Assembly (NCBI RefSeq): GCF_023055435.1
Contig: NW_025964358.1
Span: 744,001-808,000, forward strand
Origin: Haliotis rufescens
Lineage: Eukaryota
Reading direction: 5' to 3'
Length of the DNA stretch: 64,000 bases
Position numbers and translations under genes: made by a program. Below the pieces are notes generated by a model. It saw only the letters and a list, made by a program, of their open reading frames with translations, did not search any database and had not been told where the DNA came from. This document shows positions 4,186 through 63,657 of the stretch, piece by piece (the first letter of the stretch is position 1; each line of letters begins with the position of its first letter).

Positions 4186-4209
4186 TATCTGAAAATTGGA
4201 AAAGCATAC

Positions 4210-33709: not shown

Positions 33710-33767
33710 ATGTGGTACAAAGTGCTAGGCGTTGTCTCTCTATGTAGTGTTTATGTGAGCACACAAG
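33710..33767 (+). CDS. FAMeT-like gene 1, exon 1 (signal peptide MWYKVLGVVSLCSVYVSTQ)
   Basis: ATG, hydrophobic stretch, donor AAG|GTAAGA, phase 1 matches exon 2. Confidence 0.72.
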
Positions 33768-33869
33768 GTAAGATTTTATTATAATTATTATTATTTATTA
33801 TCATATTTTTATCTTGTTTGATAACTACATTAACTTAACATTGTCACAAATAAGTGTGTTCATGCTTTC

Positions 33870-34100
33870 TTGTTGGTTAACGCCGCACTCAGCAATATTC
33901 CAGCTTTATGATGGCGGTCGTAAATAATCGAGTTTGGACCGGACAATCCAGTGACTGACATCATGAGCATCGATCTACGCAACTGAGATACGATGACATG
34001 CATCAACCAAGTCAGCAAGCCCGACCACACGATCCCGCTTGTTGCCTCTTACGACAAGCATGGGTAGCTGAAGACCCATTCTAACCCTGATCATCATGGG
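33870..34100 (-). mobile_element. SINE-like family B
   Basis: Reverse complement of family B. Confidence 0.85.
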
Positions 34101-34300
34101 GGAATGTGTCAGTGAATAGCATTACGCCCTGGTAATAATCCTGCCAGTAAATAGTCAAATCTGGAATGCGGCACTGAACGTATAAGTAAGGAACTATAGG
34201 GGTACGATGACCACTTATTCCCATGATGAATATCCGTTTAACCTGATTTCTGTTTTCTTATTAAAGTGTTTTCAAAAACGAATTTATGGGAAGTGAGAAT

Positions 34301-34599
34301 GAGATATATGGATGAACAACTTCTTTATTACAATTAGGAGCGACGTTTCGGTGTACACCCTTCTGTGTACATAACGGGCCTCTCCACTGCAGCAGTGTAA
34401 CTGCATCTTAAACCTTCTCAACTGTATAAACACTGCCTCCTATCCTGTATATACTTGTCAACCATACTCTGTACATCACTTGATTGATAACGGTGTTAGA
34501 ACCTACATCGAAACGTCGGTCCTAATTGTAATAAAGAAGTTGTTCATCCATATATCTTATCTTTACATAGTATTCCAATTCTAAATGCCTCTCAAAGAA
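34301..34599 (+). mobile_element. Penelope-like insertion (inverted pseudo-LTR fragment plus pseudo-LTR with tail)
   Basis: ~55-bp inverted repeat 34301-34355 / 34504-34558; flanking direct repeat GAATTTATGGGA at 34280 and 34600; hammerhead-like TTGATAA..GAAACGTCGGTC followed by AATAAA. Confidence 0.65.
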
Positions 34600-35570
34600 G
34601 AATTTATGGGAGTTGAAAATATTTCTTGATTACCATATGATCTGTCAGTACTCAAACCCAAATGTGTTTCGTCCGTGTCACCTTGGGCGAGGCTACATAT
34701 AACTTTCAGTTCATATGCCACGACTTCGTCCTTCACGTTCCACAGACAGGGAACAGTGCGACGTTATACGTCAAGCTCTCTGCAGTTTATAAACTTGTAA
34801 TAACTCTCTTAAACCATTTCCATTCTCCACAATGTAACGTTCAAATTCCAATATCATCATTTCAAACTTTCTTCTGACTGTCCATAAAGTATATACCTAT
34901 TAATCTTAGATAATGCTATGATGCGTTTGTCCAATAGTTTGTTTAATTAGGGGCATACAATTATTATTTGAAACTTATGAAACCCGTTTACAAAATTATT
35001 TGAATGCTCGTTGATTCGTTGACAGGGATTATAGAATGTCAAATATCTCAAATCAAAATCAAACGATACCTTGGTTTCCATGACCAATACCGATTTTCGT
35101 TTGAAAGTTCATTTTTAAATAAATCAAATAGACGTATTCGGAGGTAAGTAATTAGCGAAGAGATTGGCATATAGGTTTAACGATATGTTCTGATTTGTGG
35201 CCAGTATATGTAGGAGATGTAAAAGTGCGTTGTAAATCCACGAGCCCATGTTGCCAGGGTTTCCAAACGGTCGATCCGGATAAGTTCCCCGAAGCTTCGG
35301 GACGATCATTGGGTGGAGGGGATTTTTGTCACCGACAAAATCATTTTCACTGCTTCAAGACGGAAATGAAGAGCCGTATATCTTTATATTGTGTCAAGAC
35401 ATCAGAATATCCAGCGAAAAATATTACCTTTTTAACCCTGAGGGAAAACTATTATTTTCTTGTAATGTTAGAGGCAAAATATTATTTTTTAAAAACAACC
35501 CAGCCACCAGACATCAAACATTGGTCCATAATCAGTATACATATCTGCCTAATCATGCTCTTCCTTACAG

Positions 35571-35773
35571 TGTCCAGTCTGCAGTGTAAGGTTGCAGGCG
35601 ACGGAGACCTCATCCCGATCAGGACGCCAGAGTACAGAGCATGGGTGCCGCTAGGCGAAGTTGGACTTAACGTCAATGACTCCAAAGTTCTTGTTTTCGC
35701 CGCTAGGTCCTGTTTTGGGGCTCACATCTTACTCCAGAACGATGCAGCGGACTTCAAGAATTCTGTTTATGAG
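35571..35773 (+). CDS. FAMeT-like gene 1, exon 2
   Basis: TTCCTTACAG| VSSLQCK..VLVFAARSCFGAHILLQND..NSVYE |GTAAAG; the F-x-x-x-[AS]-x-x-[DG]-AHI-x-L motif matches the Methyltransf_FA domain. Confidence 0.85.
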
Positions 35774-35995
35774 GTAAAGTTACAGCATTGTATGATGTTC
35801 TGTTGTTTCATGCCGAGGTCAGTACTATTCCAGCTATGTCACGGCTGCCTTCATAGATCACAGAGTTTGACCAGGCAAACCAGTGAAGGATAACAATCCA
35901 TATAACAATTGTATCTCAGACCCTGAACACCCGTTACGACCAGCAATGAGTTGTTGGGGGTCTATTCTAACCATAACGCTAATATGTGCTATGTA

Positions 35996-36993
35996 GGAGG
36001 GTTGACTGATGAGTTCTGAACCTCACATGGAAGGATTTGTGTAATAGTGAAATCTTAATGGGCATTACATGATGTCACAGGGGTATATCCACAAAGTCTT
36101 GAGTCGTTGCTACAAGTCAGTTTAAGCAGGGGTCTGTGACCTTGAGGATTGTTCATTGATCAAGTACTTCCATGAAGATATGAGTACAACTCAAGGAACG
36201 TGGCAGGGAAATCCTTGAAGAGGGCCCCTTTCCCGGAAGGCCTGTGACATCAGCAGCACAAGAAAGTATCCGGAGAATCCACGATATGGTGATGGCCGAC
36301 CGGACAATGCTAGTTCGTTTCCTATGAGAGTGTACATTTCATTATCACAGAAACTTTGGCAATGAAGAAAGTAGTAACTCGTTGGGTTCCAAAGCTTCTG
36401 ACATCTGATAAAAAACGCACAAGATGACTTGTGATAATCTACCTCTGTTTGAGGCTGATCCAGATAGGTTCTTGCAACTAGTGTCTATGAATGAAACCTT
36501 GGTTCTTCAAGTCAAAACAACAGTCAAAACAATGGGAGCATGTGACATCACCACCACCAAATAAGGCAAAGACTATCCCATCAGCTTGGGCAGTTATGGC
36601 CTCACTGTTCTGGGGTGCTGGGGGTGTCATTATGGTGGACTATCTTCCATAAGGCCAGACAATAAACGGAGCATTTTATCCTGCCCTTTTGAGGCAATTA
36701 TGGGATAAAATGAATACTAGGAAAAGATGTGATCTTCCACCAGGACAATTTTCCAGTGCACAAACCAGTCACTGCCATGGATTACGATCCTGGCTTTGAA
36801 CTCAAATCAACTCGAACGATGACGTCATTGCAGCTGCGGAGAACCTTTTGGACAGCCAAAGGAAGTACTGGTATAAATTTTTTCGAACAACGTTGGCAGA
36901 CGTGTATCAATATTGGAAGTGATTATGTTCAAAAATAAGTCTTTTAATGTCTTTAGGTCAGGTCTTTCTGTGTGAGGTTCAGAACTTATCAAT
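35996..36993 (+). mobile_element. degenerate mariner transposon in intron 2 of gene 1
   Basis: TIR TGATGAGTTCTGAACCTCACA / TGTGAGGTTCAGAACTTATCA; KKVVTRWVPKLLT, MNET, VMASLFWGAGGVIMVDYL, IFHQDNFPVH. Confidence 0.88.
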
Positions 36994-37088
36994 TATTTTT
37001 AAACGACATATATAGACCTGGAATGAAAGTTACACACCCCCTGAGGTAATGAATTATAACATGTCACCTCTAATTTCAACTGTAATGG

Positions 37089-37303
37089 CAACCCATGTTT
37101 GTCGTAAAAGGCGACTGGGCTTGTCGTAAGAGACGACTAACGGGGTCGGGTAGTCAGGGTCGCTGACTTGGTTAATGCATATCATCGTATCCCAGTTGCG
37201 TGGATCGATGCTCACGATGGCAATCATTAATTGGATTGTCTGGTCCAGACTCGAATATTTACAGACCGCCATTATACAGCTGGAATATTGCTGAGTGCGG
37301 CGT
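37089..37303 (+). mobile_element. SINE-like family B
   Basis: Similarity to 22146-22408. Confidence 0.85.
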
Positions 37304-38718
37304 TGGTAATGGCAATGATCATTATGTCATGAATGGTGTTCCATCGAAAGAATGTGACCGTTCATGTATACCGGTGACGCCACTCATACATTGCCCAAAC
37401 TGCAGTATGTTCAGGCATCGAATTTTGGTACTGTAATCAGCTGTCGCGCACTGTTTAATCATTCCCTGTGCACGACACGAAAGATATCAGAGGTGCAAAG
37501 ATGACAAATAATCGGAATGCATTCCATGGGGTTGTCTATCTGGCGTAAAACATAGGGTACCATTACACAGTAGTCAGCCAGTCGGTGCGAAAACAAGGTC
37601 AAACCAATGCTGTCAAGGACTTCCAAGTTCAGAAAACCCTACAGCGACGTCACTGCGTTAAGACAGGGACTGCTACGACAAGTGCGACTACAGTCCATTA
37701 CAAGGGGTCCCGTCCTGAAGCTATAATGACTACCCTGTCGAAGTATGTCCACCAGAACCTTGATGAACGGCTTAAGAGTTGAAGGAATGGTGCCCAGGAG
37801 AGTCATCAAAGCTTCCCTCCTGGCAGATCACTGTCAGAGGTTCCGGTTTGTATGGTGTTCAGCATGACGGGCTTGGAATCTCACGGAACCAATATTCCAG
37901 CTACATTGTATATGACGGCGGTCTGTAAACTCAGAGCGGGCTGTCAATAAATGACCCTTGGGCCGGAAAACTGTGCCTGACAACATGAACAATGATCCAC
38001 GTCTTGGGGGCACAGTGTTTGTTCTGTTTATGTGTGTGTTGTTTCACGCCGCACTCAACAATATTCCACGCTACATGTCGGAGGCCTGTATATAATCGTG
38101 TCTTGACCAGACTATAAGGTGATCGATATTGTGAGAAACGACCCACGCCGACGGGGAGCGAGGACACGCTGTCAACAACGTCACAGCACCTGACTACCTA
38201 TTTTGGTCACCTCTTATGGCCAGCATAGGTTGCTGGGGCACAGTGACACATACTACACCAGGCTATGCATTGTAACCATCTGATCCTTTTTATGTCTTTT
38301 ACAATCAAAAGCGCCACAATTCTTTCCATAATAATAAGACATATCTGCTAAATGCAGGGTCCATTGTACGATTGTGATCATATCACGTGTTGGTGAAAAG
38401 AGGAGCACATTCTGTCCTACAGGTGGCACCAGTAACAAATACATGCAAAGGTTAGTCAAATGTTCACCTGAAATAAAATAGTGGAACCTAATCAAAAAAG
38501 GGAATTGCATCGGACATCATTTTGGTAACTGATGTTTGAAATGTGGAATGATCTCCACGCTCTGCCATGTTTTTTAAAGCAGTCGTAAGGCCTTCAATGG
38601 TGTACATCGTTTAAGCAAGTCATTTGGCGTTCTAGGGAGCTATCCTGCTCAGGAATCGCCAAAGGGAACAGTGATTTCGTAATAGTTGAATCCTCATATC
38701 GTATGTTTCCATCTTCAG

Positions 38719-38977
38719 GTTGTCATTGGAGGAATGAAAAACACCCGATCAGGAATACGGCAATGTGTTGGGTGTAAGTTCGATGAATGGGTGAAAGACA
38801 AGAGCCTCAACTGCCGCTTCTTCAACTACTTCTGGATTTCCTGGTGCGGGGATGAGCTATGGGTGGGGCGGGGATACAAACCCCCGCAGGACCGGTTCCT
38901 CCGACACAAATTCGAGAATCAACATGTCATCAACGCAGCTAGTATCAGGAGCGAGAGCGATACTTTCTGGGCCCTGT
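38719..38977 (+). CDS. FAMeT-like gene 1, exon 3
   Basis: CCATCTTCAG| VVIGGMKNTRSGIR..FNYFWISW..LWVGRG..DTFWAL T|GTAAGT; YE/VVIGGxxNTRSxIR and FWISW are signature motifs; exons 1-3 total 173 codons plus 1 nt. Confidence 0.9.
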
Positions 38978-39385
38978 GTAAGTAGTATAAGCAGCGAAAT
39001 TGATACATTCTAGGCCCTGTGTAAGTAGTATCAGGAGCGAGAGTGATACTTTCTGGGCCCTGGGTAAGTAGTATCAGGAGCGAGAGTGATACTTTCTGGG
39101 CCCTGAGTAAGTAGTATCAGGAGCGAGAGTGATACATTCTGGGCCCTGTGTAAGTAGTATCAGGAGCGAAAGTGATACATTCTGGGCCCTGTGTAAGTAG
39201 TATCAGGAGCGAGAGTGATACTTTCTGGGCCCTGTGTAAGTAGTATCAGGAGCGAGAGTGATACTTTCTGGGCCCTGTGTAAGTAGTATCAGGAGCGAGA
39301 GTGATACTTTCTGGGCCCTGTGTAAGTAGTATCAGGAGCGAAAGTGATACTTTCTGGGCCCTGTGTAAGTAGTATAAGGAGCGAG
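38941..39385 (+). repeat. 43-bp minisatellite containing the exon 3 end and splice donor (10 full units plus partial; degenerate copies to ~39970)
   Basis: Unit AGTATCAGGAGCGAGAGTGATACTTTCTGGGCCCTGTGTAAGT starting at 38941, 38984, 39027 ... 39328, 39371. Confidence 0.97.
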
Positions 39386-41080
39386 ATACTCCCTGGGCGC
39401 TGTTTTACTCGCATCAGGAGCATGTGCCTAAATATCGTTTCACACGTTTAAGCAATAATCCAGAAATATCATGGCGGGGAACACTAGAAATGGGCCTCAA
39501 GCATTAAACCCCAACAAGATTGATTCTTTCTGGGCCTTGGGTTTTTAGTATTACGAACAAGACTTATTCTTTCTCTGCCTTCTTGTCGTTGTGTTAGAAG
39601 CGAGAGTGAATCTTTCTAGGCCTTCTTTTACTAGCGTTAGACGCGAGAGCGCATCCTTCTGGTCTTTGTGTGTGTAATATGAGGAGTGAAATGAAACTTT
39701 CTGGGCTATGTCTTTGACTGGCGTTTAGACGTTGGTCGAAGGTGCAGACATAAAACTATTTGATGGATACCAACTTTTTATAGTGTGGCATGACGTTGAG
39801 GGGCTACAGTCATTCAACTGATGAAGGGGCAAAGCGTAGCCTACCTGTAAGTAGTGTCAGGAGAGAGAGAGAGAGAGAGGGATTCTTTCCCAGCTCTGTG
39901 TAAGTAGTTTCAGGGACGAGGGTGGTACTTTCTGGGCACTGAGTAAGTAATATGAAGAACGAGAGTGGAAGTGGATATGAATAACATGGAAAGGAACAAA
40001 ACTTTAACAAAATATAATGAAATTGGTGAGCTGTGTTCACGCATGTATGACTAGCATTTTGACTTTGAATTTTCAACAATTGAACATTGGCACTATAAAT
40101 GCATAGGTGAAGCTAAAACGCGTCATTAACCTGTACCTATTGCTACTCTGTTCATGCTGTTTACAGGTGACATCCCCTAAAATTCAGCTTGCTCCAAAGA
40201 CTTGCTCATGTTCAAATAGCAGACAAAAACGATTCTTCAAATCTCTGAAAATCAGGCTTTTTGACTTGCCCATACCTAGATTTACAATTCAGCCTTTCGT
40301 TCAATTATATATTTGATCTTTTCAAACGTCCAAGACTTGTAAGTGTAAGAACGTACACAAGTTAATTGTCAGCCACAGAAACATGTCTGACAAGATTCAT
40401 GCCCAAATTCTAAAGTTTCCTTTCGACATCCCAGTGGCTACAAAAGGGTCCTTGTCTATCCTCGACCTTTCCGAATCGAGGTCGTCAAGAAATAGAAACT
40501 ACTTGTTTTAGAAATCTTACATTTGACACGCCCAAAGAACCCCACGCATGGTGAAAATGATTATGAAATACACCTTTACCTGACCGAAAGTTTTTGAACG
40601 TTACCACTTCACCAAAAGATGCAATGTAATATGTATCAACACCCAGTAGCTAAACACTGCCATATTAGCCCCGTGTGGACCAAAGTTAAAATAGATCACC
40701 AGCACTCTATTGAATGTCGTAAGAGGCAGCTAAATTGGATAAGACGGTCGCTTTGTAGTTGGAACTTTGCTCAGTTCCATATTTCATTGTTTGTTCCATA
40801 TTTCTAACATATAATGCATTACCTCAATCCAAGACCAGCGATCACAGAGCTACGACGATGATCGTAGCTCCAATATACAAGCATAGGCATACAATCATAT
40901 AAGCACCAATATCGCTCTATCGACCCCTCAACAGACATTCCTCATATATACATATCCTTCTGTGTTTCGGAGTTGTTCTATAAGAGAGCTACTTGTTCAC
41001 CTGTTGTAGTTTTCGTCAAGGGATTTACTGGCACAAGATGAGGACATCTGAATCTTTATTCATTGCCTGTTGTGTTTCAG

Positions 41081-41285
41081 AACACCGTTGGTACGCCCTC
41101 TTGTAGAGTTCTGCCGATGCTGGTACATCTGTTTGAACCGTTCTACACTTACTCTATGATAGCAGCTTCCCCGGAACGACGACACACAATTTATATTCCT
41201 TAAAGTATTGTACAATTTGCTGATATATAGTTTCACATATATATATAATAGTTACAAATAAAATAAAAATGATATCGATTACGCA
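41081..41285 (+). other. candidate terminal (3' UTR) exon of gene 1
   Basis: Acceptor TGTTGTGTTTCAG|AA creates T|AA stop across the junction; AATAAA twice near 41257-41267. Confidence 0.45.
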
Positions 41286-43096
41286 AAGGAACTATACGAC
41301 TGAGATACTGTTTCGATCTTTTAAGATTTAGATCATTATTACTTCAAAGAATCATGGCAGATTACTGAAGCAAATACAAGTATGAACCTAATACGATTTT
41401 CATCAGAATTAACATTGATTTTGTTTTTGTCGTATCAACCCTGTGCTGTTGTACATTGCACCCTTGTGTTCAGAAGAAATATACTTGATGCATACAGGTA
41501 CATACTGTAGTTGTTTTGCTTGTTTGTTGTTTGTGTCTGACCTTACAACAAACATGGGTTGCTGAAGACCTATTCTAACCAGGATATTCACAGAGGGCAG
41601 GGAGTATAATAAAAACGACCAAACTTACATGGCCAGAAGAAATATCACCCAAAAGCAGAGCCGACTGCACGATTCTAAGCATGTGCTTGTGAATCACTAT
41701 CAAATGGTAATGATACCAGGTTTTCGCAAACAGGTGAGAGTATCTTGCCGCACTGTTGGCACCCAATTGAAACACACGCAAAGGTGAGTCAACACACAAG
41801 AACTCACACAATGTAAACATAAACCAATTGGAACTGGACATGTCAGCTTCGCCCTTTTGGTTTTGTAGTTAGTTTTTGTAGAGAATTATACAGGAAAGTA
41901 AATGACCTACAGAACAACGATGGTAACATTTGTTCGTCTATTCTTTGACGGCTAATTTTTAATACATTAGTCCAGAAGCCTAAAATCCTATTTTTTTAAC
42001 ATCGCACAAACGTTTTTCCAGATATATGACGGCGGCATGTGAATAATAGACTCAAATAAAAATGAAATTATTAAGCAAAGATTTACGAAATTTAGACACG
42101 TCACCGAGTCTTACCCCCCGATACATTTAGTCACCTCTTACATTTACGACCAGCATGAGATGCAGGATACGTTCAAATAGCTCCCCCGCAACCTATGCTT
42201 GCAGTGAGATGGGATGGTCAGGCACGCTGACTTGGTTGATGCATGTTATCATATCACAATTGCGTAGATCGATGCGTATGATGTCAATCGCTGGATTGTC
42301 TGGTCAAGACTCGATTATTTACAGACTGCCGTCATAAAACAAAAAACAAACAAACAATAAATCAAATCACAAGTGCAGTAATCTAAGGTTTGCTAATTAG
42401 CCGATTTTGGCGTCAAACAAAATACAAAGAAATGTTTTCGTTTGTCGCACGGGAACTTCGTAAAACAACTGCGGTCATCTGTAACACTTCAATGTGAAAA
42501 CTCTGCATGGTACATTTCAATATTTGCACCAGCTCGAGGGATAATTGAACTCATCAGCTGCCGAACCAAATGACATCTGCTAGTGTATCGGTCACCTACG
42601 TTAACTAAAGACTTAGACTATCGAACAAATTCATTAAAAGCCGCCATAGGAGGTGGCATCAGGTGAACCCTGACCGAACTTTGACCGTTTGATTTAAATG
42701 AAGGATGCGTGGGTTCCTGAGCCATAACATGTTAGCTCTCGCCCAAGGTGTAGATGCCATGGCGCTCAGAAACGACAGTATAAGTAAACTAGCGAAATCA
42801 TGGCCGAGCTTACATTCGGCTTCAAGATACAGAAAACACACATGTTGGTTTGCAGGCTTCACTCACGCGTATCGAGAATACAGAAGCCTCGACAGCTGAC
42901 AGGATGATTAACAATTTCTCCTTACGCGACCTCCTTTTATACGGTATATGTCGTAGATTGAATGTCAAACACTATCCCACATTCACTTCAGAAAAAGTGA
43001 GAACTGAACGTGTCAGAGTTTCAAACCTTTAAGCTAAAGTATAAGTTTATAGGTTATGTCTGCTTCACATCATCTGAACAGTTGGCTTGAGTGATT

Positions 43097-44022: not shown

Positions 44023-44085
44023 CATGGCGGAAAATATAAAGTCATAAGTCTTGTGATTGTGATGCGTGGGGATCCAGAGGTTGCT

Positions 44086-45432: not shown

Positions 45433-45487
45433 ATGACATCCCCGAGGATGTTGTTGTTGTTGACCTGTGTCTATGTCTCCGTACGAA
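45433..45487 (+). CDS. FAMeT-like gene A, exon 1 (signal peptide MTSPRMLLLLTCVYVSVR)
   Basis: ATG, Leu run, donor AA|GTAAGT; paralogous to 56008-56062; TATA-like TATTTATAGTAAA near 45353. Confidence 0.82.
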
Positions 45488-45677
45488 GTAAGTATTAAAG
45501 GATGTGGGACACCCAAGGGGATATTATTAACACATTGAATGAAATAACCCAGTTGTCGGTTACACCTACTGGGTTGTCAGTCCAGATTTGAAGAGGTCAT
45601 TTTACGACGTATTTGCTAATCTAGGTATAGGCATGACTACAAATTGTGAGGATCCTCTGTTGTGTTTACTTGTGATA

Positions 45678-45967
45678 GACCCGTGAAGATCCGCGTTAGA
45701 ATTTATCTTCAGCAACCCATGCTTGCCGTGATAGGCGACTATGCTTGTCGAAAGAGGCGGCTAACGGGATCGGATGGTCAGGTTCGCTGACTTGGTTGAT
45801 GCATATCATCGTATTCCAATTGCGGAGATCGATGCTGATGATGTCAATCATTCGATTGCCAGGTCCAGACTCAATTATATACAGACCGCCGTCATATAGC
45901 TGGAATATTCCAGGAATATTGAATATTGCCGCGTTAAACAACAACAAACAAACAAACAAACACATCC
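45678..45967 (+). mobile_element. SINE-like family B in gene A intron 1
   Basis: TSD CTTGTGATA at 45669-45677 and 45968-45976. Confidence 0.9.
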
Positions 45968-46649
45968 CTTGTGATAAGCAAATCACGGTCAAGCAAATCC
46001 TGCTTGGCCATGTCAGTTTTTCCATCCGAAAGGGACGGATATTTCAAACCATCGTCTCTCAAGGACTTCTCCCTTATTTGCTCATTAGAAGAAATTGGAT
46101 TGATTGTCACAATTTAATATGTTGTGCTTGGTAAAATTTGATGATTAATCGGTAACAGATTGTTCGCTGCTGTATCCTCAAAGTAGCGTTAATTTAGTTC
46201 TCAACCTAAGAGGGTTTGTAAGCCCATGTCAAGGTATTAAGAGCTACTCTGTGATGCTCTTTTACTAGTTTTAAACATAGATATGTGATGGTTTAGTTCC
46301 ATCGTCGACAGGTTTGATATATTTCACGGAATAAGTTAACTTTGCATTGGGAATATATGAAGACTTTGATAGCTAAAACTATGCTTGTTAGCCATTTTAC
46401 CGCGAAATTTCGGGGGCCTGTCACAAAGGCCACCAAATGGATCGGGTGATGAAGCTCACTGACTTGGTTGATGGCGTGACATCGTACCAGTGGATCGTTG
46501 TTCACAACAGGCAGCCGTCCCATAACTGAAATAATGCCATGTGCTGCCTTAAACAACAAACTACTTCACATGTAAAATACTGTCAGATGTACTTGTCGTT
46601 ATGTTAAAAGGGCTTTAGAGGAAGGATATTGAAATAATGACAGATAAGT

Positions 46650-46819
46650 GTGTGAGTGAGTAAGTTTGGTTTTACGCCGCTTTTAGAAATATTCCAGCAA
46701 TATCTCGGCGGGGAACACCCGAAATGGGCTTCACACATTGTATCCATGTCGGGAATCGAACCCGGATCTTCGGCGTGACGAGCGAACGCTTTAACCACCA
46801 GGCCACCCGACCGCCCCAT
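46650..46819 (-). mobile_element. SINE family C in gene A intron 1
   Basis: TSD TGACAGATAAGT at 46638-46649 and 46820-46831. Confidence 0.9.
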
Positions 46820-47126
46820 TGACAGATAAGTATAACAGACATAGACATTGAAACACAGTCCACTTTGGATCGTTTGTTGCCGTACCTTGGGCGACAGGCT
46901 TCGTCGTAGATGTTCTGGTAACATGCACCGTCATGTACACTACCTTAGTGTATATTTGATGGCGAGCACATTGCATATCCAAAGGAATTATGACATCACA
47001 TCAGAGATATTCTAAGTACACTGTATGGGGTATATTGGGGACTTCTGTCATCCACCACTTGTCTGCCTCAGACTGTTTTATGTACAGGGTACGGTAATAT
47101 TGCTTGAATATTTGTTTCTTTCTTAG

Positions 47127-47251
47127 ACTGCCATGGTCCGTTACCTACGAGGCCCTATGTGGAGCTGGAGACGGACAATCAGTACATCTACCAGTCCTTG
47201 CAAGAGTTGGATGTGAAGCTCATACCACAGACAACGTCCTTCAAGTTTAAA
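47127..47251 (+). CDS. FAMeT-like gene A, exon 2
   Basis: TTTCTTAG| NCHGPLPTRPYVELETDNQYIYQSL..SFKFK |GTGAAG; 125 nt, same length as B exon 2. Confidence 0.85.
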
Positions 47252-47937: not shown

Positions 47938-48274
47938 GTCCAGGCTTCAAATGACGGCCACGTGGCTTTGCTTACCTATGATGGCGAAACGGGACAGAAC
48001 ATGTACGAAATCGTCCTCGGTGGATTTAGCAATACGCGATCTATAATCAGAAACAGCAGACAGGGAACCAACAGGGTCGAAACATTTCATTCTCCTCTCA
48101 GTTCCACGGAATTCCGCGACTTCTGGATCAGTTGGGAAGGAGGTGTGATATCAGTGGGCACAGGGACGACTGTTGGCGCAGGACAGTTCATGACCTGGAC
48201 GGACCCAGCTCCATATGATGTCAACTATCTCGCCGTCACAACGGGGTTCGGGTCTTCTGGGTCCTGGCAGTTTG
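47938..48274 (+). CDS. FAMeT-like gene A, exon 3 (domain 1 core)
   Basis: TTTATAG| VQASNDGHVALL..MYEIVLGGFSNTRSIIR..FRDFWISW..YLAVTTGFGSSGSWQF G|GTAAGG. Confidence 0.93.
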
Positions 48275-49532: not shown

Positions 49533-50260
49533 TACCCTCAGCAACAAAAGTTCCTGCGACACCCCTTGCCAATCGGTTGCATACAAAAACCTTTCTGGTG
49601 TTCAAATCGGATGTGAAAATATGAAAATAGTAGCACAAACGCAACCGATTACGTCTGCAGTTGTGTAGACAACGAGTGCGTTGAACGGCATTTCAGTGGA
49701 GGTTCTGTTCACCGACGTGTCTCGTTATCACCTGTCCCACGACGATGGCCGAATACGAGTAAACCGACGTCGTAGTGGACGTTACGCTCAGGACTGTGCT
49801 GTGGTGGAAGACCGTTTCGGAGGAAGCAGTGTCATGGTGCAGCGTTACCGTGACGAGGTCATCCAGCCTATCGTTGTACCGTTTTGGAATTAACCGAGAC
49901 CTGGCATGATTTTTCACCATGACAACGCTCGACCCCATGTAGCCCGGACTGTTCAACAAGGACTTGGACAGAACAACGTCAATGTGATCCCATGACCTGC
50001 TCGCTCTCCAGATCTTTCTCCAATTGAACACATGTGGGATGAAAGGAACCACCGTCTCCGACGTTTACCACGTGCTCCGACTACAGTACAGGAACTGATA
50101 GACAGGCTGGTGGAGATAGGGGATGCCATTACACAATACTGTGTTAGACGTTTGATCCGTTCAATGTGGAGGAGATGCATTGCAAGCTTCCAAGAGAGAG
50201 GGAGGCACACGCTACTGACGTGTGAACTGACAAGTCTGTTGCATCTTTCACAATACACTT
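49533..50260 (+). mobile_element. degenerate Tc1-like transposon (DDE region)
   Basis: VLFTDVSRYHLSHDDGRIRV..DRFGGSSVMV, IFHHDNARPHVA, PARSPDLSPIEHMWD; terminus resembles the 26600 family. Confidence 0.87.
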
Positions 50261-50944
50261 TACTAGAACGCCCAGTTAATTGTCTTTTTAAGTTTTGTAA
50301 AGATTTGCCACTTGACAACGGAGGACTGTTGTTAGCAGTGATGAATCGGGATTTGAGAGCAGGATTTCATTCAAGATGACAGATCATGGGTTCAAAGGCA
50401 GATCTGGTAGTGGCAGTGCTATTGTCTGAGCAGCCATCTCTCACAGTGTGGGAACAGACCTTGTGCATGTCACAGGGAACGTCACAGTCCTTCATTTCCA
50501 ACACAAAAGCATTCGGACACGCGTCATTCCATTCATGAGCCAACCTAACCGACCACACTATTACAACTTTTTTAAACCGAAATTGGATTTTTTCAATCGT
50601 CCTCCAGATCAATAGATCTGAGCCCAAGTGAACATGTGGGATATGCGGCGTTTATGACGACTTATATTTGACTTGGGCCTTATCTGTGTACTGGTTTAGA
50701 AACATGTCGGTTTAAGGTGTTAGTCTTCTAAGATGCCATGCTACAGTTTAAAATGTATAGCCTACTTAGACGCAGCATTCTGACTCCAAGCCAAATAGTC
50801 CTTACCAGTTCTTAAATAATTGTCGTTGAATTCAGCTATTTGCTGTCGTCCCTATATGGCTGAGACAATGCCAGTGCGACGTTAAATATTCAGACACAGA
50901 CTTTCTAGTACAGATATAATTTGTCTACCGCTCCTGTCCTGCAG

Positions 50945-51418
50945 ATTCTGATGGAGGCATGTCCAGTAGGGCACCTGTAGCAGGTGTTGCAACAGACAAT
51001 GTCTACCAGTACAAGTCTGTTACAACCCGTGGCGTCCGCTTGACACAAAGACGAAACTGTATTCCGGCCCTCGTGTTCTGGTTACGGGCCTCTAACGACG
51101 CCCACATTGCCTTGGTCGCCAACGACGGCGACACTGACAATAACATGTACGAGATCGTCATTGGAGGATTAAGCAACACAAAGTCTGTCATCCGAGAAAG
51201 TAAGCAGGGCACAAACGAGGCATTTGCTCTTCACAAGCCTCTCTCTCCGGATCAGCATTTACCATTCTGGATTAGCTATGACAATGGTCTGGTAGCAGTG
51301 GGATATGGCGTCACTGTTGGAAGACGGGAGTTCATGTCGTGGACGGACGCAACACCCAACAACGTCGGATACGTCAGCATCACCACGGGATTTGGCTCTG
51401 ATGGACACTGGCTCTTCT
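50945..51418 (+). CDS. FAMeT-like gene A, exon 4 (whole domain 2)
   Basis: CCTGTCCTGCAG| DSDGGMSS..FWLRASNDAHIAL..MYEIVIGGLSNTKSVIR..FWISY..VSITTGFGSDGHWLF T|GTGAGT; 474 nt, phase 1-1. Confidence 0.93.
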
Positions 51419-52157: not shown

Positions 52158-52174
52158 ATGCAAGAGACAGATAA
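52158..52174 (+). CDS. candidate short terminal coding exon of gene A (YARDR*)
   Basis: TTTGTTTCAG| in phase 1 with several AATAAA downstream; alternative acceptors at 51759 and 52258 are not excluded. Confidence 0.35.
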
Positions 52175-53172
52175 TTGGATGAAGTGGCGCCTTTACAATA
52201 AACATTTGGGCATACTGCAATAATTTCGACTCTGATTTATATTCTTCTTTTTTGCAGATACACAAAAGAATAAAACTGTACATTAAATGAAATAAACCAT
52301 TCCGCAACTGCATGTATATATGTTTCGATTGTGTAACTTGACAATACTTACCTTCAAAAAGTTATTGCTGGTCTCTCTGTCCCAACGGTGGCACCCGACA
52401 CAACACATGCTAAGGCAAGTCACTTGTGCACCTGAAAAAGACATGCCATGATTGACCATTGAAATATTGGAAACTAAGATTGATAAAAGATTTCTCCTGG
52501 GCGCTTTCTTTCTTCTTGCAGATCAACCAGCTCTTCGTTTTTCGATCCTCCATAGAAAGCATCTATGGTTAACGATTTATTAAATACGGAATTTTCACGA
52601 ATGAACATTTTCTGATTAAATGTAACTGAGTGAGGATGTGGGATTGGTGGATGAATGATACCTTCTTCACCTGTTAAGATTGACTGCATGTAATATCATG
52701 AAAACTTGACATCCATCTCCAGTTTGGTTTATATATGTATTCCTTCCGAATATATGCGACCTTGATTACTTGATCGAAGCTGTACTCAGTCATAATCAGA
52801 ACTGGCGTTCTCATGTTCTATGAAAACTTACAACAAACAATCACTCAAATACTTCATGATTGCTTCATGTTGTTTCAAGCGCTAACACTGGTTTGTTTCA
52901 CCTGTGACTCGATTCATTTAGCACGTTGGTTCGCAGTGGAAATTAAACTCAACTAACTTAACATGAATGTACCTCGCAATCAACTAAACGTGAAATCCCC
53001 TTTTTATGTGATGAGCAATGAACATGTAATACGATGCAAGGAAAACGAATTTTAAGTGAAGCTTCTGTTTAATTAGCGTGTGTTTACGATGTCAGTGGTC
53101 ACTCTCTCAACTATTTCTACTCAGTGTGACACTATACTATTCTAGTTGACTAGTTCTGTCACTCAGAGAGAG

Positions 53173-53402: not shown

Positions 53403-53529
53403 CACCCATAAAAGATATCCATTTACGACCTACACCTGTGAACGAGAAACCAACTGAAAACATTGGAGTAAAATACAGCGTCTACGCTGGACGGCCATGC
53501 AGTGGGGACAAGTCCATTGAGATATCCCT

Positions 53530-54384
53530 CTACCACTATCAAACGGGTCCTCTAGCTTGCTTTAATGCAACCCCATACCATAACGCTGCCGCACCCGAAC
53601 CGATCTTCGTCCATGACACAATGACTGACGTAACGTTCACCTCGACGTCGGTACACTAGAATCCGTCCATCGCTGTGGCTGAGGTGAAAACGAGACTCGT
53701 CAGTGAATAGAACTTGTCCCCTCTGCATGGCCGTCCAGCGTAGACGCTGTCTGCACCACTGTAGACGTGCTTGACGGTGGTTTCCTGTCATCATGGGACG
53801 TCTGGCGGGTCTGACGACGTACGGTTTGTGAAGATATTTGTCGAAGGCAAGGGATGCTTCTTGTAGTCACTGTTGCTGGCTGGAATCGATTTCGTAGGTG
53901 TGTTGTTCAAATCCAGTTGTCTTGTCAATTATTGGTTACGCGTGGCCTGCCACTCCGAGGATCGTCTCTGACTGCATTCGTCTGTTGCCAACGTTGCCAT
54001 AAACACCACATGGTGTTTCTATGGACGTTAAATTGTCTTGCAGCATCACGTTGACTCGATCCTGCATCAAGCAGACGCTCATTTTCGGACCGGCGTGGCA
54101 TTTCGTAATGTTGAATAATTGCGTAATTTTGTTGTTTTTCTGAGTGGTTGTTGTCAGAACGATGCTAAACAATGCATATGGAATCCCGTTAACGCACATG
54201 TTTTTATACCCATTCTTGGGTAGTGAAATGCATTGGGCTTGCATAAAGTCAACTTTTGCTTGGAATGCATCCTTTTACTGTAGCAGTTCCGTTTTTGTGA
54301 CTTGATTCCATATATGAACTACACTTTACTTGTTTGAAAAATACAGTAAAGTATTGGTGTCACAGGAACTTTTGTTGTTGAGTA
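53530..54384 (-). mobile_element. Tc1-like transposon, truncated
   Basis: Terminus GTTGTTGAGTA plus TA; ATG at 54101; HRQARLQWCRQRLRW..VLFTDESRFHLSHSDGR..VMVWGCI; same family as 26600. Confidence 0.9.
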
Positions 54385-56007: not shown

Positions 56008-56062
56008 ATGACATCCCTGACGCTTGTGTTGCTGTTGACCATTACCTGTGTCTTCGTAAGAA
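56008..56062 (+). CDS. FAMeT-like gene B, exon 1 (signal peptide MTSLTLVLLLTITCVFVR)
   Basis: 55 nt, donor AA|GTAAGT, paralogous to 45433-45487. Confidence 0.82.
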
Positions 56063-56527: not shown

Positions 56528-56810
56528 TTATTGTTTGTTGTATAACGCCGTACCCAGCAGTATGATGGCTGTCTGGTTATATCGAATCTGGACCAGACAA
56601 TCCAGTGATTGATGTCAGGCGAATAGGTATGCACAACTGGAATAGGATAAAATGCATCAACCAAGTCATCAAGTCTGACAACCCGATCTCGTTAGTCGCC
56701 TCTTTCGACAAGCATGGATTGTTGAAGACCAATTCTAACCCGGATCTTCATGGGGGAGAGACAAGCATGGGTTGCTGGAGGCTTATTCTGACCCGGACCT
56801 TCATGCGAGA
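56528..56810 (-). mobile_element. SINE-like family B with duplicated 5' end
   Basis: Two AGCATGG..GACC/GGCT..CCCGGA units at ~56711 and ~56764. Confidence 0.75.
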
Positions 56811-57249
56811 CAGGTCATCGTCATGTAGCTGGAATATTGCTGAGTGCGGCATTAAAGAATAATGGAACATCATTTTTCAAGATATTTCAAATGCAAAAAT
56901 ACTGTCGTATGTAATTTACATGGCTTAAATTAGACGAAGGATATTGAAATATTGACAAATATTCAAAACCGATACAGATATTTGAAACTCCATTTTTTAT
57001 CCTCTTTTTGGCCCTATCGTTGGCGACAGATTTTATCGTACAGCGTGTAGACCATGATTATTCTGGTCAAAGACTCTTGAACACACAGGTCGTGAGTGCC
57101 TTTTTAAATATCTGCTTCTCAGTTTCCTATTTGTTCCATGGCAACTGGCCAGCATCTTGAAATGACCTGTAGCCATATGTTTCTGTACACGTGAATGGGT
57201 CGTAAAACCAGTGTAGTCACGGCCTAATGACCGTACCGCTTTCCTCTCT

Positions 57250-57506
57250 CCGTGAAGATCCAGGGTGGAATATGTCTTCAGCAACCCATGCTTGCCGTCA
57301 AAGGCGACTATGCTTGTCGTAAGAGGCGACTAACGGGATCGAGTGGGCAGAATTGCTGACTTGTTTGATGCATGTCATCTTATCCTAATTGCGTGGATAT
57401 ATGTTAATGATGTCAATCGCTGGATTGTCTGGTTCACGCTCGATTATTTACACACCGCCGTCATATAGCTGGAATAGTGTGGTGTTAAACAACCAACAAA
57501 ACAAAA
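57250..57506 (+). mobile_element. SINE-like family B
   Basis: Similarity to 22146-22408. Confidence 0.87.
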
Positions 57507-58907
57507 ATTCTCCGCAAACGGTCTAGTGAAAGTACTGCTTCCCTCTCTCTTAATTTCCCGGCGTCGTCACCGTTCGGCAAACTCGTACTCCGGTGTCTTT
57601 AAGTTCATTCTTTGGGCTCAGTTACACATTCAAGATTTTTTTACTGCCTTCCTTGATAGGACCATCCCAAATAAAATTTGTTAAAATTCCGATCATGATC
57701 CTGCGATTCGTGGCGGGAAATTCACGAACAATCAGACGTTGTTCAGGAAGCGTCCCGATTTAGCCGTTTCAAGCAGAAATCGTCTCGATTCTCCCGCTCT
57801 CAATCCGAATCTGATCCGACTTGTATGTTCCGCATAGTTAAAAAACGTCCGAATCTGTTCTCACAGCCTCTCGATTCCTGAATGCGATCCGACAGAGATC
57901 AGACTGTGATCGGACAGTGAAACGACGGTTTGCATTCGGCAAGATCTGGACTCCATCGTCAAGAAACGGCAATGAACAATTCATGCACGTTCATCACGAT
58001 CCACAGGACACCATCCAGACAACACAGGACATTGTTACGATTTTGATCCGATACAGCAGAATCTGTTGCGACATAGTCACGATTGTAATTCGACTAGACA
58101 AAAATCGGCAGAGTTTCACGAATATTACGGGACGCACCATACTGTCGGGAGTGCTTGGCCGACCTCTCTGCATCTTTCCCGACCCGTAGGACTCTGTTAC
58201 GAACGTTTAAGACTGGGTTCAGACAATGATAGACATTCTAGATCATTGAGGATCCTGTGATTGCTTACTTTAGGTCAAGTGCCTATTTACTATTGGGAAT
58301 CAAGTTACGTTTTTCAATTATTAGTTTATTCTTGTTTAAGGACATCCTGGTACCCCTAGAAAATGTTGATCTTTTGATCGGAGAGAACGTGCTATCTCTA
58401 AGTCTGTAAACTGTGTCTGGGTTGGGTATCCATGGCGAGTAAGGCATAAATAAGGCATGGATTAACATCTTAGTATCTGATTTACCACTTGGCCTGTAAC
58501 CAACCGTAGGTACACCAGAAGTATTATTCCGGCTGTCTTACTCAGCAAAATTCAAGCTGGTATTCACCACCCGATCCATCAGTCGCTTTGTGGAGGGAAG
58601 ACAAGGGCTTGCAAGCCTGGAGGTTATTAAACCGATTTTCTATGTTCCATTCATATTATCTGCACCCGATATTTCCTGGACACTGGAATCTGTTTCGGTT
58701 GATAATCGAGACTGGTTATTCTCTGGCGTTGACGTTTTATATTTACTGTTGGCAATGATGCATTCGTGATAATGAGTTAAACAAGGATTCCGTCAATTAA
58801 TGCGTGTGTCGTAAGAGGGTGGTGACATGCATGATTGCGTGTCATCGTACCGTATCGGCGCGGATATGACACGGTCATAGTGCTTTAATACTTGTTTTTT
58901 CTCTTAG

Positions 58908-59032
58908 ACTCTTATGGCTGGTCAGCGACGAGGCAGTATGTAGAGCTTGAGACAGACACCCAGTATAACTACCAGTCATTGCAGGAGGTGGATGTGAAGA
59001 TAAGATCACAAGCCACATCCTTCAAGTTCAAA
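58908..59032 (+). CDS. FAMeT-like gene B, exon 2
   Basis: CTCTTAG| NSYGWSATRQYVELETDTQYNYQSL..SFKFK |GTAAAG. Confidence 0.87.
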
Positions 59033-59534
59033 GTAAAGTATCTTATTTCATCATTCCTCGTCACCTTTCATTATTTCAGAGTCAGAATACGTCCCCAGTA
59101 TGAGGCTTGTCGTGAGAGCAACCCAAAAAGGGTATTTGGTGGTTACAGTACATGCTTGCATTCTTTTTATTAATGTTCAGTTCTTTCACACAGGAAAATA
59201 AATGACACTGAGTTTTTCCACAAACACCAGGAGCTCATTCACCGACATTTTAAGTATTGAGTCACTTGGTATTGGGTTCAAATTGCTGGATTAAGGAGAG
59301 CTTTTAAACATATATTTCTTTGGTTTCATAATATTTTAGGCTTTGGGTTTTCTTTTTCTTTTGTTAGAGCCTAGATGTGTTTTTGGTCACTACTTCAAAA
59401 CTATGAAAAGAGGAGGCATTTCTTTTCCACCGTGGTTCGAGAGCATCCAGCAATGCCCAAACTGTAATGAATCTGGAAGCTTATTCGTCTTTTTACGATC
59501 GATAAAATTTAGATTTCATTACTTCATATACATA

Positions 59535-60781
59535 TAGTCTGGTTCGAAATTATTGTGAATTTTAATGTCATATTCAAGGAAGCATACATAAAATATCAAT
59601 ATTGACACGTGTTTAAAATTAAGGTATGGTCAAAGGGAAGCAACTCTTCTTCAATTTTAGAAGTAGCAAATAAGAGTTATCTCCCTTAATTATGGAGCAG
59701 ACGACTTTTCCTGATATATGCCAGAAATGAGTGCAGAGGACAAAAGAAGGTTGATTCTACAGCTCCATGATGGAGGCATCATTGGTGCTGCTAGAAGAAG
59801 AGAACAGATACTCCTCTTCCTACAGTGTATAAAGTTAAGAAGAATATTGAGAATGGTTCGGGAATTGAGCACAGAAAAGGAGCGGGGAGACCTCGAAAAC
59901 TGGTGTTTGGTGATCGTGTGAGAATGGGTATTTCGGCTTCTAAAAACAGAAGGGCGAGTATCTCAAATATCCAACATAAAATGGTAGATAGAGGGACAGT
60001 AAATGTATCCAAATCTACAGTAAGAAGGAATTTGATTGAACTTGGATGGGGAAAAAAGAAAGGAATTGCCTCTCCGCTCTTGAAACAAGAACACAAGGAT
60101 AGACGTGTAGGGTGGTGTTTGGCGCATAAAAACATTGACTGGAACAGTGTTATTTTCAAAGATGAGAGCTTTGTATGGGTGTATCCTAACAATGTTAAAA
60201 TGTGGAGTCCGAAGTTTCATGTTTGGGGAGGGATATCTTCACTTGGAACGACGCCCATGTGTGTCTTTGAGGGTAATTTAACCAGTGAAAGGTATACAGA
60301 CATTTTGGAAGCTCACCTGATCCCAAATGCAGATGGGTTTTTTATGGAAATACTTGGATTTTGCAACAGGATAATGACCCGAAACACACCGCAAGACATG
60401 CGCGGCAGTGGTTTGTGGACAACAATGTGACAGTTTTGGACTGGCCTAGCAACAGCCCGGACTTAAATCCTATAGAAAATGTGAAAAGACTCATGAAGGA
60501 GTCGGTGAACCAAAAGGGATTGACAAAAGTTGATGACATGAAGCGCGAGGTGGTGCAATATTGGGACTCTCTCACCCACAAGACTCTAACCTCTCTCATA
60601 GGAAGTATGCCCAATCGTATAAACTTTGTTTAGAAGCAAATAGTGGTCTGATAAAATATTGATGTTACTGTGATGTGATTAAAGTAGGTTTGTGCTCACT
60701 TAAAATGTTTTATTTTGGGGGGAAATTTTCATATTTACAATTTTAAAGATTTTCAATTCTCAATATTTATGACTCATACTG
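59535..60781 (+). mobile_element. near full-length, frameshifted Tc1-like transposon in gene B intron 2
   Basis: GAGRPRK, WNSVIFKDES, HVWGGISS, QQDNDPKH, WPSNSPDLNPIEN; degenerate TIRs TAGTCTGGTTCGAAATTATTG / CAATATTTATGACTCATACTG with TA flanks. Confidence 0.92.
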
Positions 60782-60899
60782 TATAACTCTATAAGGCTAA
60801 AACAATGCTGATGCAACGTTCTAATGTCCTCACCCAAACATTTGTATGTCTCTGATTACTATGAGGCTGACATGATAATATATCTAAAAATGCTTACAG

Positions 60900-61236
60900 A
60901 TCCAGGCTTCAAATGACGCCCACGTTGCTTTGCTCACCTATGATGGCGAAACGGGACAGAACATGTACGAAATCGTCCTCGGTGGATTTAGCAATACGCG
61001 ATCTATAATCAGAAACAGCAGACAGGGAACCAACAGGGTCGAAACATTTCATTCTCCTCTCAGTTCCACGGAATTCCGCGACTTCTGGATCAGTTGGGAA
61101 GGAGGTGTGATATCAGTGGGCACAGGGACGACTGTTGGCGCAGGACAGTTCATGACCTGGACGGACCCAGCTCCCAATGAGGTCAACTATCTCGCCGTCA
61201 CAACGGGGTTCGGGTCTTCTGGGTCCTGGCAGTTTG
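60900..61236 (+). CDS. FAMeT-like gene B, exon 3 (domain 1 core)
   Basis: GCTTACAG| IQASNDAHVALL...GSWQF G|GTAAGG; ~98% identical to A exon 3. Confidence 0.92.
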
Positions 61237-62819
61237 GTAAGGATTAATACAGAGGAGATAGTATGAGTTGAGTGTATTTGTGTGGTATTCCAATGATATC
61301 ATCAATGGAACTGAAAACTAAGAACAAAAAAGTAATATTTCCATTAACAAAATAAATAACAGCGACAAAACCCATTCCATATTCATCAAATTCGATTGAA
61401 CAATTCCGACTATATCATGAAATGTGTCTATGAATCATTGTGATGACCCCATTGGTTTGCAAAAAGGTGAGAGTATCTGCCCCACCGTTGGTACCCGTCA
61501 CATGCAAATGCAATTCAATTGCTCACCTAGGGCAACATGGGAACATATAGTACAAGACACAACAAGATATTTTATAAGCTCTGCTCAGGACTTAAATGTT
61601 TTAACCAAGATCAAACACTTTTTAAGCAACAGTCGTATGACACTCTTTGAAATCTTGGTAGAAAGAACATGCTCGATTGTGCCTTAAAAATTGTGAATGT
61701 AGACTCCAAAGGCTGTAGCTGCTGGAATATTGCTGGAAAGTTGTCAGTTGACTAATGAAAAGATGAAGTCATTCCTCTTGTCATGAAGGCTCCTTTAGTT
61801 CTAGTTCAGGTGTTATATCAGTGGAAGGGACTTAGCTATTTAACCGAGGGAAAGTGTTTTTATTTTATTTTCAACATAAACTATCTTCTTTTAAATAAAC
61901 TGCTCATATCGATAATGAAGCCTTTCAATTCCAGCCAGGAAGAAGCTTCTGAAACCACTCTAAAAATGAATATTAACTGTAAAAGTGTTTTTAGATATAT
62001 TTTGGAAAATGAAAAGCTAGAATGGTTTAAAAAAATATTTCATCTGAGGTTGTTCAAGAATCACTTGACAGTGCATTTACACGTATTGATACAAGCCCAG
62101 AATATATTGTAGAGGCATGTTGTCCAGCTTCGTCTGACAGGAACAGAAAAACTGGCGAAGTGAGAAATGAAGTAAATAATTCCTTTGACCACAGAATGTT
62201 TAAGATCTTTCAATAAAATTAGAAAATGTAAAGATACAAATTATAAGAATAACACTACTTTGTTTAAGACAAGTCAATATCTAATTAAATGTTTTCTGAA
62301 GTTTTCCGTACTGAAAATTATATTTCTTGTTGAAGTAAAGTCTTGAAGGTTTTGTAATATTCATAACGTGAACTGTCCTCTAAAGTGAAATGCCATTCTT
62401 GGTATAACATGATTATAGACCGATTTCAAAATTCTTTAAGAACCATATTTACATTTCCAACTGACTTATATAAAACTAAAACCATGAGATAATAAATGAT
62501 TTCTTATGTGCGAGTATTCGTTACCATGTTATGGCCATGTATAACCTTGTGTGAGGAATAACCATAATGGTTCTTCTGATACCTTCTATATACAACTCGG
62601 AGTGAGGTTATATACTGAATTAGCAACTCAGATTTAAAACTACCACACCAGTGTAATACAATTCTACCAAGATATAGTTTTCATTTATGTCTTCTATTAT
62701 TTGAAGATGATGTATTATTCAGAAACAAATTAAGGACCTACAACATTATGGAAAATAATGTATATTAACGGTAAAAGTGGATAAATAAACCCAACTGAAA
62801 ATGCGATACGAACTTGCAA

Positions 62820-62925
62820 TTGATAGTCGTGTACGACACCGTCACCCTGAACCTGAAACAATTGCACGACTTGTTGTTGGCCTTGCAACCAGAGTGGAAT
62901 TAACATCCCCCAGACAGGTCATGAC
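62820..62925 (+). mobile_element. small Tc1 transposase C-terminal remnant
   Basis: RRVRHRHPEPETI.. and ALQPEWN*.IPQ-like residues. Confidence 0.4.
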
Positions 62926-63180
62926 TTTTGTTGACCCTAATGGTCTGTAGTATGATGCTGTCATTGAATCCTTCTTTTTGGGCTGGAATATTATATTTAA
63001 CTATCAACAGAACATTTGTTTTGTATTGCATCTATGAAATTTATCTTCCTAGTTTGCTGAGCCTTCGCTAACTGAATTATGTATGATTTGCTCTCGTCGC
63101 TACTACCAATGTGACGTTAAGTGTTCAGAAACAGACTTTGTATTTTTAAGATGTAATCATATTACCGCTTTTTCCTTCAG

Positions 63181-63657
63181 ATTCCGACAGCACCTTGTTG
63201 AGTGGGGTACCTATAGCAGGTGTTGCAACAGACAATGTCTACCAGTATCAGTCTGTTACCACCCGTGGCGTCCGCTTGACACAAAGAGGTAACTGTATTC
63301 CGGCCCTCGTGTTCTGGTTATAACGGGCCTCAAACGACGCCCAAATTGCCTTGGTCGCCAACGACGGCGACACTGACAATAACATGTACGAGATCGTCAT
63401 TGGAGGATTTGGCAACACAAAGTCTGTCATCCGAGAAAGTAAGCAGGGCACAAACGAGGCATTTGCTCTTCACAAGCCTCTCTCTCCGGATCAGCATTTA
63501 CCATTCTGGATAAGCTATGAAGACGGTCGTGTAGCAGTGGGATATGGCATCACTGTCGGAAGACGGGAGTTCATGTCGTGGACAGACGCAACACCCAACA
63601 AAATCAGATACGTCAGCATCACCACGGGATTTGGCTCTGATGGACACTGGCTCTTCT
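63181..63657 (+). pseudogene. FAMeT-like gene B, exon 4 (domain 2) with in-frame TAA insertion at 63321-63323
   Basis: TTCCTTCAG| DSDSTLLSGVPIAGVATDNVYQY..FWL*RASNDAQIAL..; 477 nt = A exon 4 plus 3 nt; donor T|GTGAGT. Confidence 0.85.

Follow-up and report, generated by a model that had tools for sequence, protein, structure and literature searches.

Secreted PF12248-domain genes of Haliotis rufescens, one the orthologue of the shell-matrix protein UP5, are predicted to adopt a lectin-like beta-sandwich

The window analysed here, a 64,000-nucleotide stretch of the Haliotis rufescens genome (RefSeq assembly GCF_023055435.1, contig NW_025964358.1, positions 744,001 to 808,000 of the forward strand, numbered below from its first letter), carries between positions 33710 and 63657 three genes on the + strand with one, two and two copies, respectively, of the PF12248 (Methyltransf_FA or FAMeT) domain. 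A preliminary description of this DNA had placed the five copies by their motifs, a reading of motifs and splice sites gave the same genes, and its coordinates proved right: measured by hidden Markov model score against the curated cut-off, which stands at 24.2 bits, all five belong to PF12248 (102, 102.2, 102.4 and 95.6 bits, and 48.7 bits for the whole protein of gene 1). The fifth copy is broken by an in-frame TAA, such that the intact domain copies in the window number four, not five, and the gene extents needed amendment, as a fourth exon of gene 1 lies at 41081 and the array continues past the window. The features are listed below; the transcript runs (X numbers) were taken as RNA by guess, and the GT..AG joints in their contigs show splicing.

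33710..33767, + strand: first exon of gene 1 (UP5 orthologue), ending in phase 1 and encoding the predicted signal peptide; from the sequence and RefSeq XP_046325978.2, with the same N-terminus in Swiss-Prot P86728
35571..35773, + strand: gene 1 exon 2, encoding the PF12248 domain's first half; GT..AG joint to exon 3 in runs X10 and X23
38719..38977, + strand: gene 1 exon 3, encoding the PF12248 domain's second half; 27.7 bits to PF12248 alone, RNA joints on both sides
38940..39386, + strand: 43-bp tandem repeat, 10.4 copies, repeating the end of exon 3 and its splice donor
41081..41445, + strand: gene 1 exon 4, completing the stop codon, then 3' untranslated region (UTR); joint 38977-41081, GT..AG, in runs X10 and X23
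45433..45487, + strand: coding portion of gene 2 exon 1 (phase 1), with the predicted signal peptide; joined by splicing to 47127 in X6, X7 and X10
47127..47251, + strand: gene 2 exon 2, in which domain 1 begins; RNA joints
47938..48274, + strand: gene 2 exon 3, core of domain 1; PF12248 102.2 bits, RNA
50945..51418, + strand: gene 2 exon 4, the whole of domain 2; PF12248 102 bits, model pLDDT 93.4, RNA in X1, X2 and X7
52158..52297, + strand: gene 2 exon 5, with the final five codons, the stop and the 3' UTR; X7 contig
56008..56062, + strand: gene 3 exon 1, predicted signal peptide; XP_048243111.1 starts with it
58908..59032, + strand: gene 3 exon 2; sequence reading
60900..61236, + strand: gene 3 exon 3, core of domain 1; PF12248 102.4 bits
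63181..63657, + strand: gene 3 exon 4, domain 2 with the in-frame stop; the last exon lies just past the window end
63321..63323, + strand: in-frame TAA in gene 3 domain 2, cutting the product to 219 residues; from the sequence and RefSeq XP_048243111.1

As had been proposed, each gene opens with a small phase-1 exon (55-58 nt, with a GT donor at its end) encoding a hydrophobic stretch, the best 9-residue Kyte-Doolittle means of the three leaders being 2.3, 2.68 and 2.92; past the leader no 19-residue window in genes 1-3 exceeds 1.09, and nothing resembles a membrane anchor. Signal peptides were called from this hydropathy and the published SignalP annotation of UP5. The gene 1 model, with four exons and 173 residues, is letter for letter the RefSeq protein XP_046325978.2, and the six cysteines previously noted in its mature region are present (25, 67, 103, 106, 119 and 130). 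A C-terminal exon at 40167 and an acceptor at 35598 were ruled out for this gene, RNA and RefSeq giving 41081 and 35571. Gene 2 has five exons from 45433 and a product of 335 residues. The RefSeq model of gene 3 (XP_048243111.1, 219 residues) stops at the TAA at 63321-63323, and since this stop lies 5' of the last intron, degradation of the transcript is possible. In the same 90% cluster, the closest protein of Haliotis cracherodii is open and 335 residues long.

Genes 1 and 2 are transcribed and spliced. The joint of the gene 2 signal exon to exon 2 (45487 to 47127, GT..AG) occurs in contigs from three of four runs, all three from one study, and exons 1-5 of this gene all lie on one contig of run X7. 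For gene 1 the joints 2-3 and 3-4 are present in two of the four runs, from two studies; joint 1-2 is not bridged by contigs of the four runs, and the same leader opens both P86728 and an H. laevigata transcript. Among the contigs listed for gene 3 none is spliced and none extends over its stop, which is not evidence of silence. The 43-bp repeat at 38940-39386 copies the final codons of UP5 exon 3 together with the GT donor about ten times, of which the RNA uses the first donor; an H. cracherodii model reads through and ends in CK, and alternative C-termini are therefore possible.

Comparison with Swiss-Prot P86728 (UP5_HALAI) shows at the sequence level that gene 1 is the orthologue of the shell-matrix protein UP5: 149 of 173 residues are identical (86%), the lengths are equal, the six mature cysteines align, and the 90% cluster of gene 1 comprises 'uncharacterized protein 5' from four Haliotis species and P86728. 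According to Marie et al., P86725-P86738 were deposited from H. asinina shell and the proteins are called mantle-secreted (PMC2989941). Mann et al. describe UP5 as a major protein, mainly of nacre, annotated 'SSP, methyltransf_FA', whose intensity-based absolute quantification reached 2.69% in one sample of insoluble nacre, against 0.63% and 0.34% for insoluble prismatic material (PMC6003135). Like the gene 1 product, published UP5 has a signal peptide and a methyltransf_FA domain. Recovery of the H. asinina and H. laevigata orthologues from the shell organic matrix, mostly from acid-insoluble nacre (PMC2989941, PMC6003135), supports, for the orthologue of gene 1, the matrix role that had been suggested.

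Genes 2 and 3 differ from UP5, with only ~32-35% identity over 79-89 residues (part of the domain), and are closer to paralogues on contig C605 (51-63% identity). Their motifs EFMSWTD, VAVGYG and YEIVLGG (24 of 27 files) and TNRVETF and GTNEAF (27 of 27) are missing from the H. laevigata shell supplements, a weak negative given that the species differ; a C605-like two-domain paralogue is found there at trace level (0.002-0.006%). On C605 itself, at 15.47 Mb and 45.29-45.34 Mb, we observed additional multi-domain PF12248 genes, again clustered and sharing this exon layout, whose sequence type resembles the trace-level two-domain protein of the H. laevigata prismatic shell. Contigs C556 and C57 carry clustered single-exon PF12248 domains with cysteines and a UP5-like CxxC loop, and among the loci compared these score highest against UP5 (25-32% identity).

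Past the window the array extends to C580:931 kb through another three two-domain genes, all of which have a signal exon of their own; one copy lies at 1.40 Mb. In exons 3 and 4 the array copies share 95-99.7% identity, and the ratio of non-synonymous to synonymous change (pN/pS), by a crude count over 264 codons in six copies, is 0.21-0.96 in all 15 pairs, which suggests young duplicates under purifying or relaxed selection. Positive selection on the array copies was rejected, with pN/pS below 1 in 15 of 15 pairs on that count, and the earlier notion of a diversifying family is not supported. In H. cracherodii four two-domain proteins, three with consecutive accessions, occur with UP5 on apparently one contig; the array therefore predates the split from that species, at least in part. 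The introns of the downstream copies (C580:821795-836647, 844983-868838 and 895215-928278) measure 15-33 kb against 0.7-3 kb in the window copies, suggesting recent large insertions. The two-domain copy at C580:1398958-1403732 is 99.4-99.7% identical to the 870 kb copy, has no signal exon in the 13 kb upstream and lies within XP_048243112.1 (985 residues, B-box zinc finger), which could reflect a genuine TRIM fusion, a nested insertion, or an artefact of annotation or of assembly. The locus itself is an ordinary tandem duplication inside a large family: the 1.33-Gb genome holds at least 77 PF12248 matches, counted by exon and spread over many contigs. A library search at E 0.001 recovered 1,542 cluster representatives, some with up to 14 matched stretches, and the relatives looked up include brachiopod, lancelet, hemichordate, crinoid, moth, oyster and annelid proteins.

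We then examined the predicted structure of the domain. AlphaFold models of gene 2 domain 2 (pLDDT 93.4, pTM 0.88, 51-row alignment) and of UP5 (pLDDT 83.8, pTM 0.79, 39-row alignment), which are not independent in that most alignment rows are common to both, are all-beta, with helix confined to four-residue turns, and are not Rossmann-like alpha/beta folds. In a fold search (VIA) covering 48,161 solved chains the best match of both was the carbohydrate-binding module CBM66, at Z 13.2 for gene 2 domain 2 (root-mean-square deviation, rmsd, 4.0, 135 aligned) and Z 13.7 for UP5 (rmsd 2.5, 129 aligned). After CBM66, at Z 11-12, came galectins, an archaeal legume-lectin domain, the galactocerebrosidase lectin domain and glycoside-hydrolase-32 sandwiches; galectin-9 matched gene 2 domain 2 at Z 11.3 (rmsd 3.0, 125 aligned) and UP5 at Z 12.1 (rmsd 2.9, 128 aligned), and gene 2 domain 2 matched the galactocerebrosidase lectin domain at 11.4 and legume lectin at 11.3. 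SPRY, thrombospondin and laminin-G domains scored Z 9-11 against both models. Foldseek likewise returned lectins and glycoside-hydrolase sandwiches, with modest TM-scores of 0.35-0.55, and no Rossmann methyltransferase was present among the matches listed (best 40 Foldseek, best 50 VIA per model). In the ESM Atlas the concanavalin-clan clusters for mature P86728 reached no more than 0.79-0.81, short of the 0.9 level, and serve as a lead only. The PF12248 domain is thus predicted to be an 11-strand galectin- or concanavalin-like beta-sandwich, in keeping with the lectin-like sandwich that had been anticipated, although a shared fold by itself shows no function. Among the 10 papers retrieved that name the domain, and the best 15 of 1,203 in a wider listing (none of these 15 with the word FAMeT), we found no paper giving FAMeT/PF12248 a lectin fold; subscription journals, Pfam clan pages and AlphaFold DB lie outside that search, and the fold may already be reported in such databases.

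An alignment of 387 domains from 150 proteins revealed conserved polar positions which, in the numbering of gene 2 domain 2, are D51 (73%), H53 (49%), E69 (71%), N77 (89%) and R83 (74%); of these, H53, E69 and R83 would point, on the predicted fold, to the face that binds sugar in galectins. Among 56 longer relatives, picked by length from the 150 and counted without a base-rate control, 23 have a partner domain, which in 14 is a named module for carbohydrate binding (16 if laminin-G3 and WSC are included), the modules being F5/8, SUEL, C-type, DM9, ricin-B, tectonin, H-type and CBM96; none of the 56 has a SAM (S-adenosylmethionine)-methyltransferase family as partner. Four proteins whose extra matches had no passing stretch were not scored as having a partner.

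Several known proteins provide points of comparison. The predicted abalone sandwich superposes on galectins, CBM66 and legume/L-type lectins at Z 10-14 over 115-145 residues, and the two-domain layout of genes 2 and 3 recalls the tandem-repeat galectins. Like galectins the abalone models are beta-sandwiches of ~130 residues, but without the galectin motif and at no more than 16% identity; galectins also are not known to carry signal peptides, unlike these abalone proteins. The sea-star footprint proteins Sfp1, 3, 4a, 5, 7 and 8 are, like them, secreted and bear FAMeT domains (two each in Sfp7 and Sfp8); they are adhesive mosaics with EGF, hyalin, WAP or vWF domains, in contrast to the domain-only abalone proteins, and their authors state the role of the domain as unknown (PMC9382459). 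In mussel, secreted FAMeT-domain proteins are reported from the mantle, and the domain is reported as upregulated in shell repair (PMC8194122). Arthropod FAMeT occurs as two copies of pfam12248, the crustacean layout resembling genes 2 and 3, or as pfam12248-DUF3421, whose DM9/DUF3421 domain the abalone proteins lack (PMC10015273). The presence of a methyltransf-FA domain in CPAMD8, to which the preliminary description had pointed, is supported by PMC9358689, and RefSeq gives gene 3 this name, transferred from the shared domain; CPAMD8 has alpha-2-macroglobulin/thioester domains, whereas in the abalone proteins only PF12248 was matched (exons and UP5), in products of 173-335 residues.

[quoted passage not shown] The predicted sandwich would carry its ligand site on the concave sheet, formed by Asp, His, Glu, Asn and Arg on strands 3-5; UP5 might thereby attach to glycosylated or polysaccharide components of the matrix, and the two-domain paralogues could serve in mantle, mucus or haemolymph, either cross-linking as bivalent proteins or acting in pattern recognition. 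Genes 2 and 3 and the downstream copies form a young tandem array subject to gene birth and loss, in which this assembly shows gene 3 truncated; the adjacent mucin is probably an unrelated neighbour. A bolder version, to which we give slightly less than even odds, is that PF12248 constitutes an unrecognised lectin family with a galectin-like fold and an Asp-His-Glu-Asn-Arg sugar site of its own, misnamed as an enzyme, in which UP5 would be a nacre lectin and the two-domain array would encode secreted bivalent cross-linkers; if true, it would also explain PF12248 in sea-star glue, arthropod 'FAMeT' and human CPAMD8.

Several observations weigh against glycan binding. The protein-binding SPRY, laminin-G and thrombospondin domains have the same fold and score near the lectins, at Z 10-11; identity to every fold match is 16% or less (6% to CBM66 for both models); and sequence and profile searches yielded no sequence-level PDB relative (best E 0.59; none by profile at E 10). 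The placement of the conserved residues on one face rests on strand alternation and the topology of galectins, not on coordinates, and the selection and counting of the 56 relatives limit the weight of their lectin partners. The galectin sugar motif, H-x-N-x-R ... W-x-x-E-x-R, is absent from UP5, from gene 2 domain 2 and from a two-domain paralogue; these genes have Leu, Phe or Met in place of the Trp that commonly follows the GG motif in the family (56%); and UP5 has lost the conserved Asp (and Trp), keeping His, Glu, Asn and Arg, among them H71, E87 and R101. The missing motif and the lost polar residues in UP5, together with matches to TRIM67 PRYSPRY (Z 10.6 and 11.1), SPRY (10.1-10.9) and thrombospondin (10.3-10.5), would also fit the same secreted sandwich serving as a protein- or mineral-binding, SPRY- or laminin-G-like scaffold of shell and adhesive matrices that binds no sugar, as would the report that sea-star Sfp7/8, with two FAMeT domains, label in a surface primer layer apart from glycans positive for wheat germ agglutinin (PMC9382459). 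Carbohydrate-binding sandwiches nevertheless rank top in both models, lectin modules are frequent partners of PF12248, and the oyster title speaks of microbe binding (PMID 34023375), and we consider such a scaffold rather unlikely, though the best placed of the alternatives.

The cluster stands head-to-head with a mucin gene, the start codon of which (16299, - strand) lies 17,411 bp from that of gene 1. Its features in the window are given as context:

16242..16299, - strand: mucin first coding exon, predicted signal peptide; from the sequence
4130..14706, - strand: mucin exon of 3,525 codons, rich in Thr/Ser/Pro (36/23/16%); exons encoding an EGF-like stretch and a predicted transmembrane helix lie past the window's left end

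The Thr/Ser/Pro exon is 10.6 kb long, internally repeated and 76% Thr/Ser/Pro. Further along the mucin strand (L018:955-5930, - strand), downstream in the mucin direction, are Cys-rich EGF-like frames and a hydrophobic 19-mer (Kyte-Doolittle 2.73) followed by basic residues, with sub-threshold Pfam transmembrane matches. From position and strand these exons would belong to the mucin, making it likelier to be membrane-tethered than secreted, contrary to what had been supposed. A homologue search with one mucin exon gave no match, and three mucin motifs are missing from the H. laevigata shell supplements, again a weak negative as the species differ. We regard it as quite improbable that cluster and mucin form a single functional locus of mucus or mantle, with the lectin-fold proteins binding mucin O-glycans. 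The heavily Thr/Ser-rich exon would supply glycans and, apart from this, the proposed connection has only adjacency to speak for it: the genes are head-to-head with no gene seen between them (Pfam matches in 2 of 95 open frames of at least 55 residues between the start codons, both mobile-element fragments). The distance of 17.4 kb is too far for a typical shared core promoter, the predicted membrane anchor argues against the link, and, with at least 77 PF12248 matches spread over many contigs, that one cluster should lie next to a mucin is nothing unusual.

Least credible by far is that the proteins are farnesoic-acid or other SAM-dependent methyltransferases, a view with the Pfam name behind it and a mussel study that still treats the domain as a potential enzyme (PMC8194122), for the models are all-beta, the glycine-rich motif I pattern and GxGxG find no match in genes 1-3, in agreement with the lack of SAM-binding features claimed at the outset, signal peptides are predicted, FAMeT methylation has never been reliably shown according to a review (PMC10015273), and a recombinant Drosophila protein is reported to be without activity (PMC3906101).

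Papers on shell, adhesion and juvenile hormone call the domain's function unknown or read it as a methyltransferase. The preliminary description was right on secretion, fold class and matrix role, and wrong on the fifth domain, on present evidence on the mucin, and on novelty, gene 1 being UP5 and secreted FAMeT-domain proteins having been published from sea star and mussel. The genes are real, and what is useful is a model-based lectin-fold assignment which, with named candidate residues, renders the function directly testable; UP5, an abundant nacre protein in a relative, and gene 2, a clean two-domain form, are small, domain-only and convenient to express.

Fragments resembling Tc1/mariner-type transposases (one with Pfam transposase helix-turn-helix matches) and a reverse-transcriptase fragment were also observed, at 59795-60630, 49696-50376, 53555-54274, 26646-27214 and 23331-23531; several of these lie in introns of the cluster, and short interspersed repeats occur in many copies across the window.

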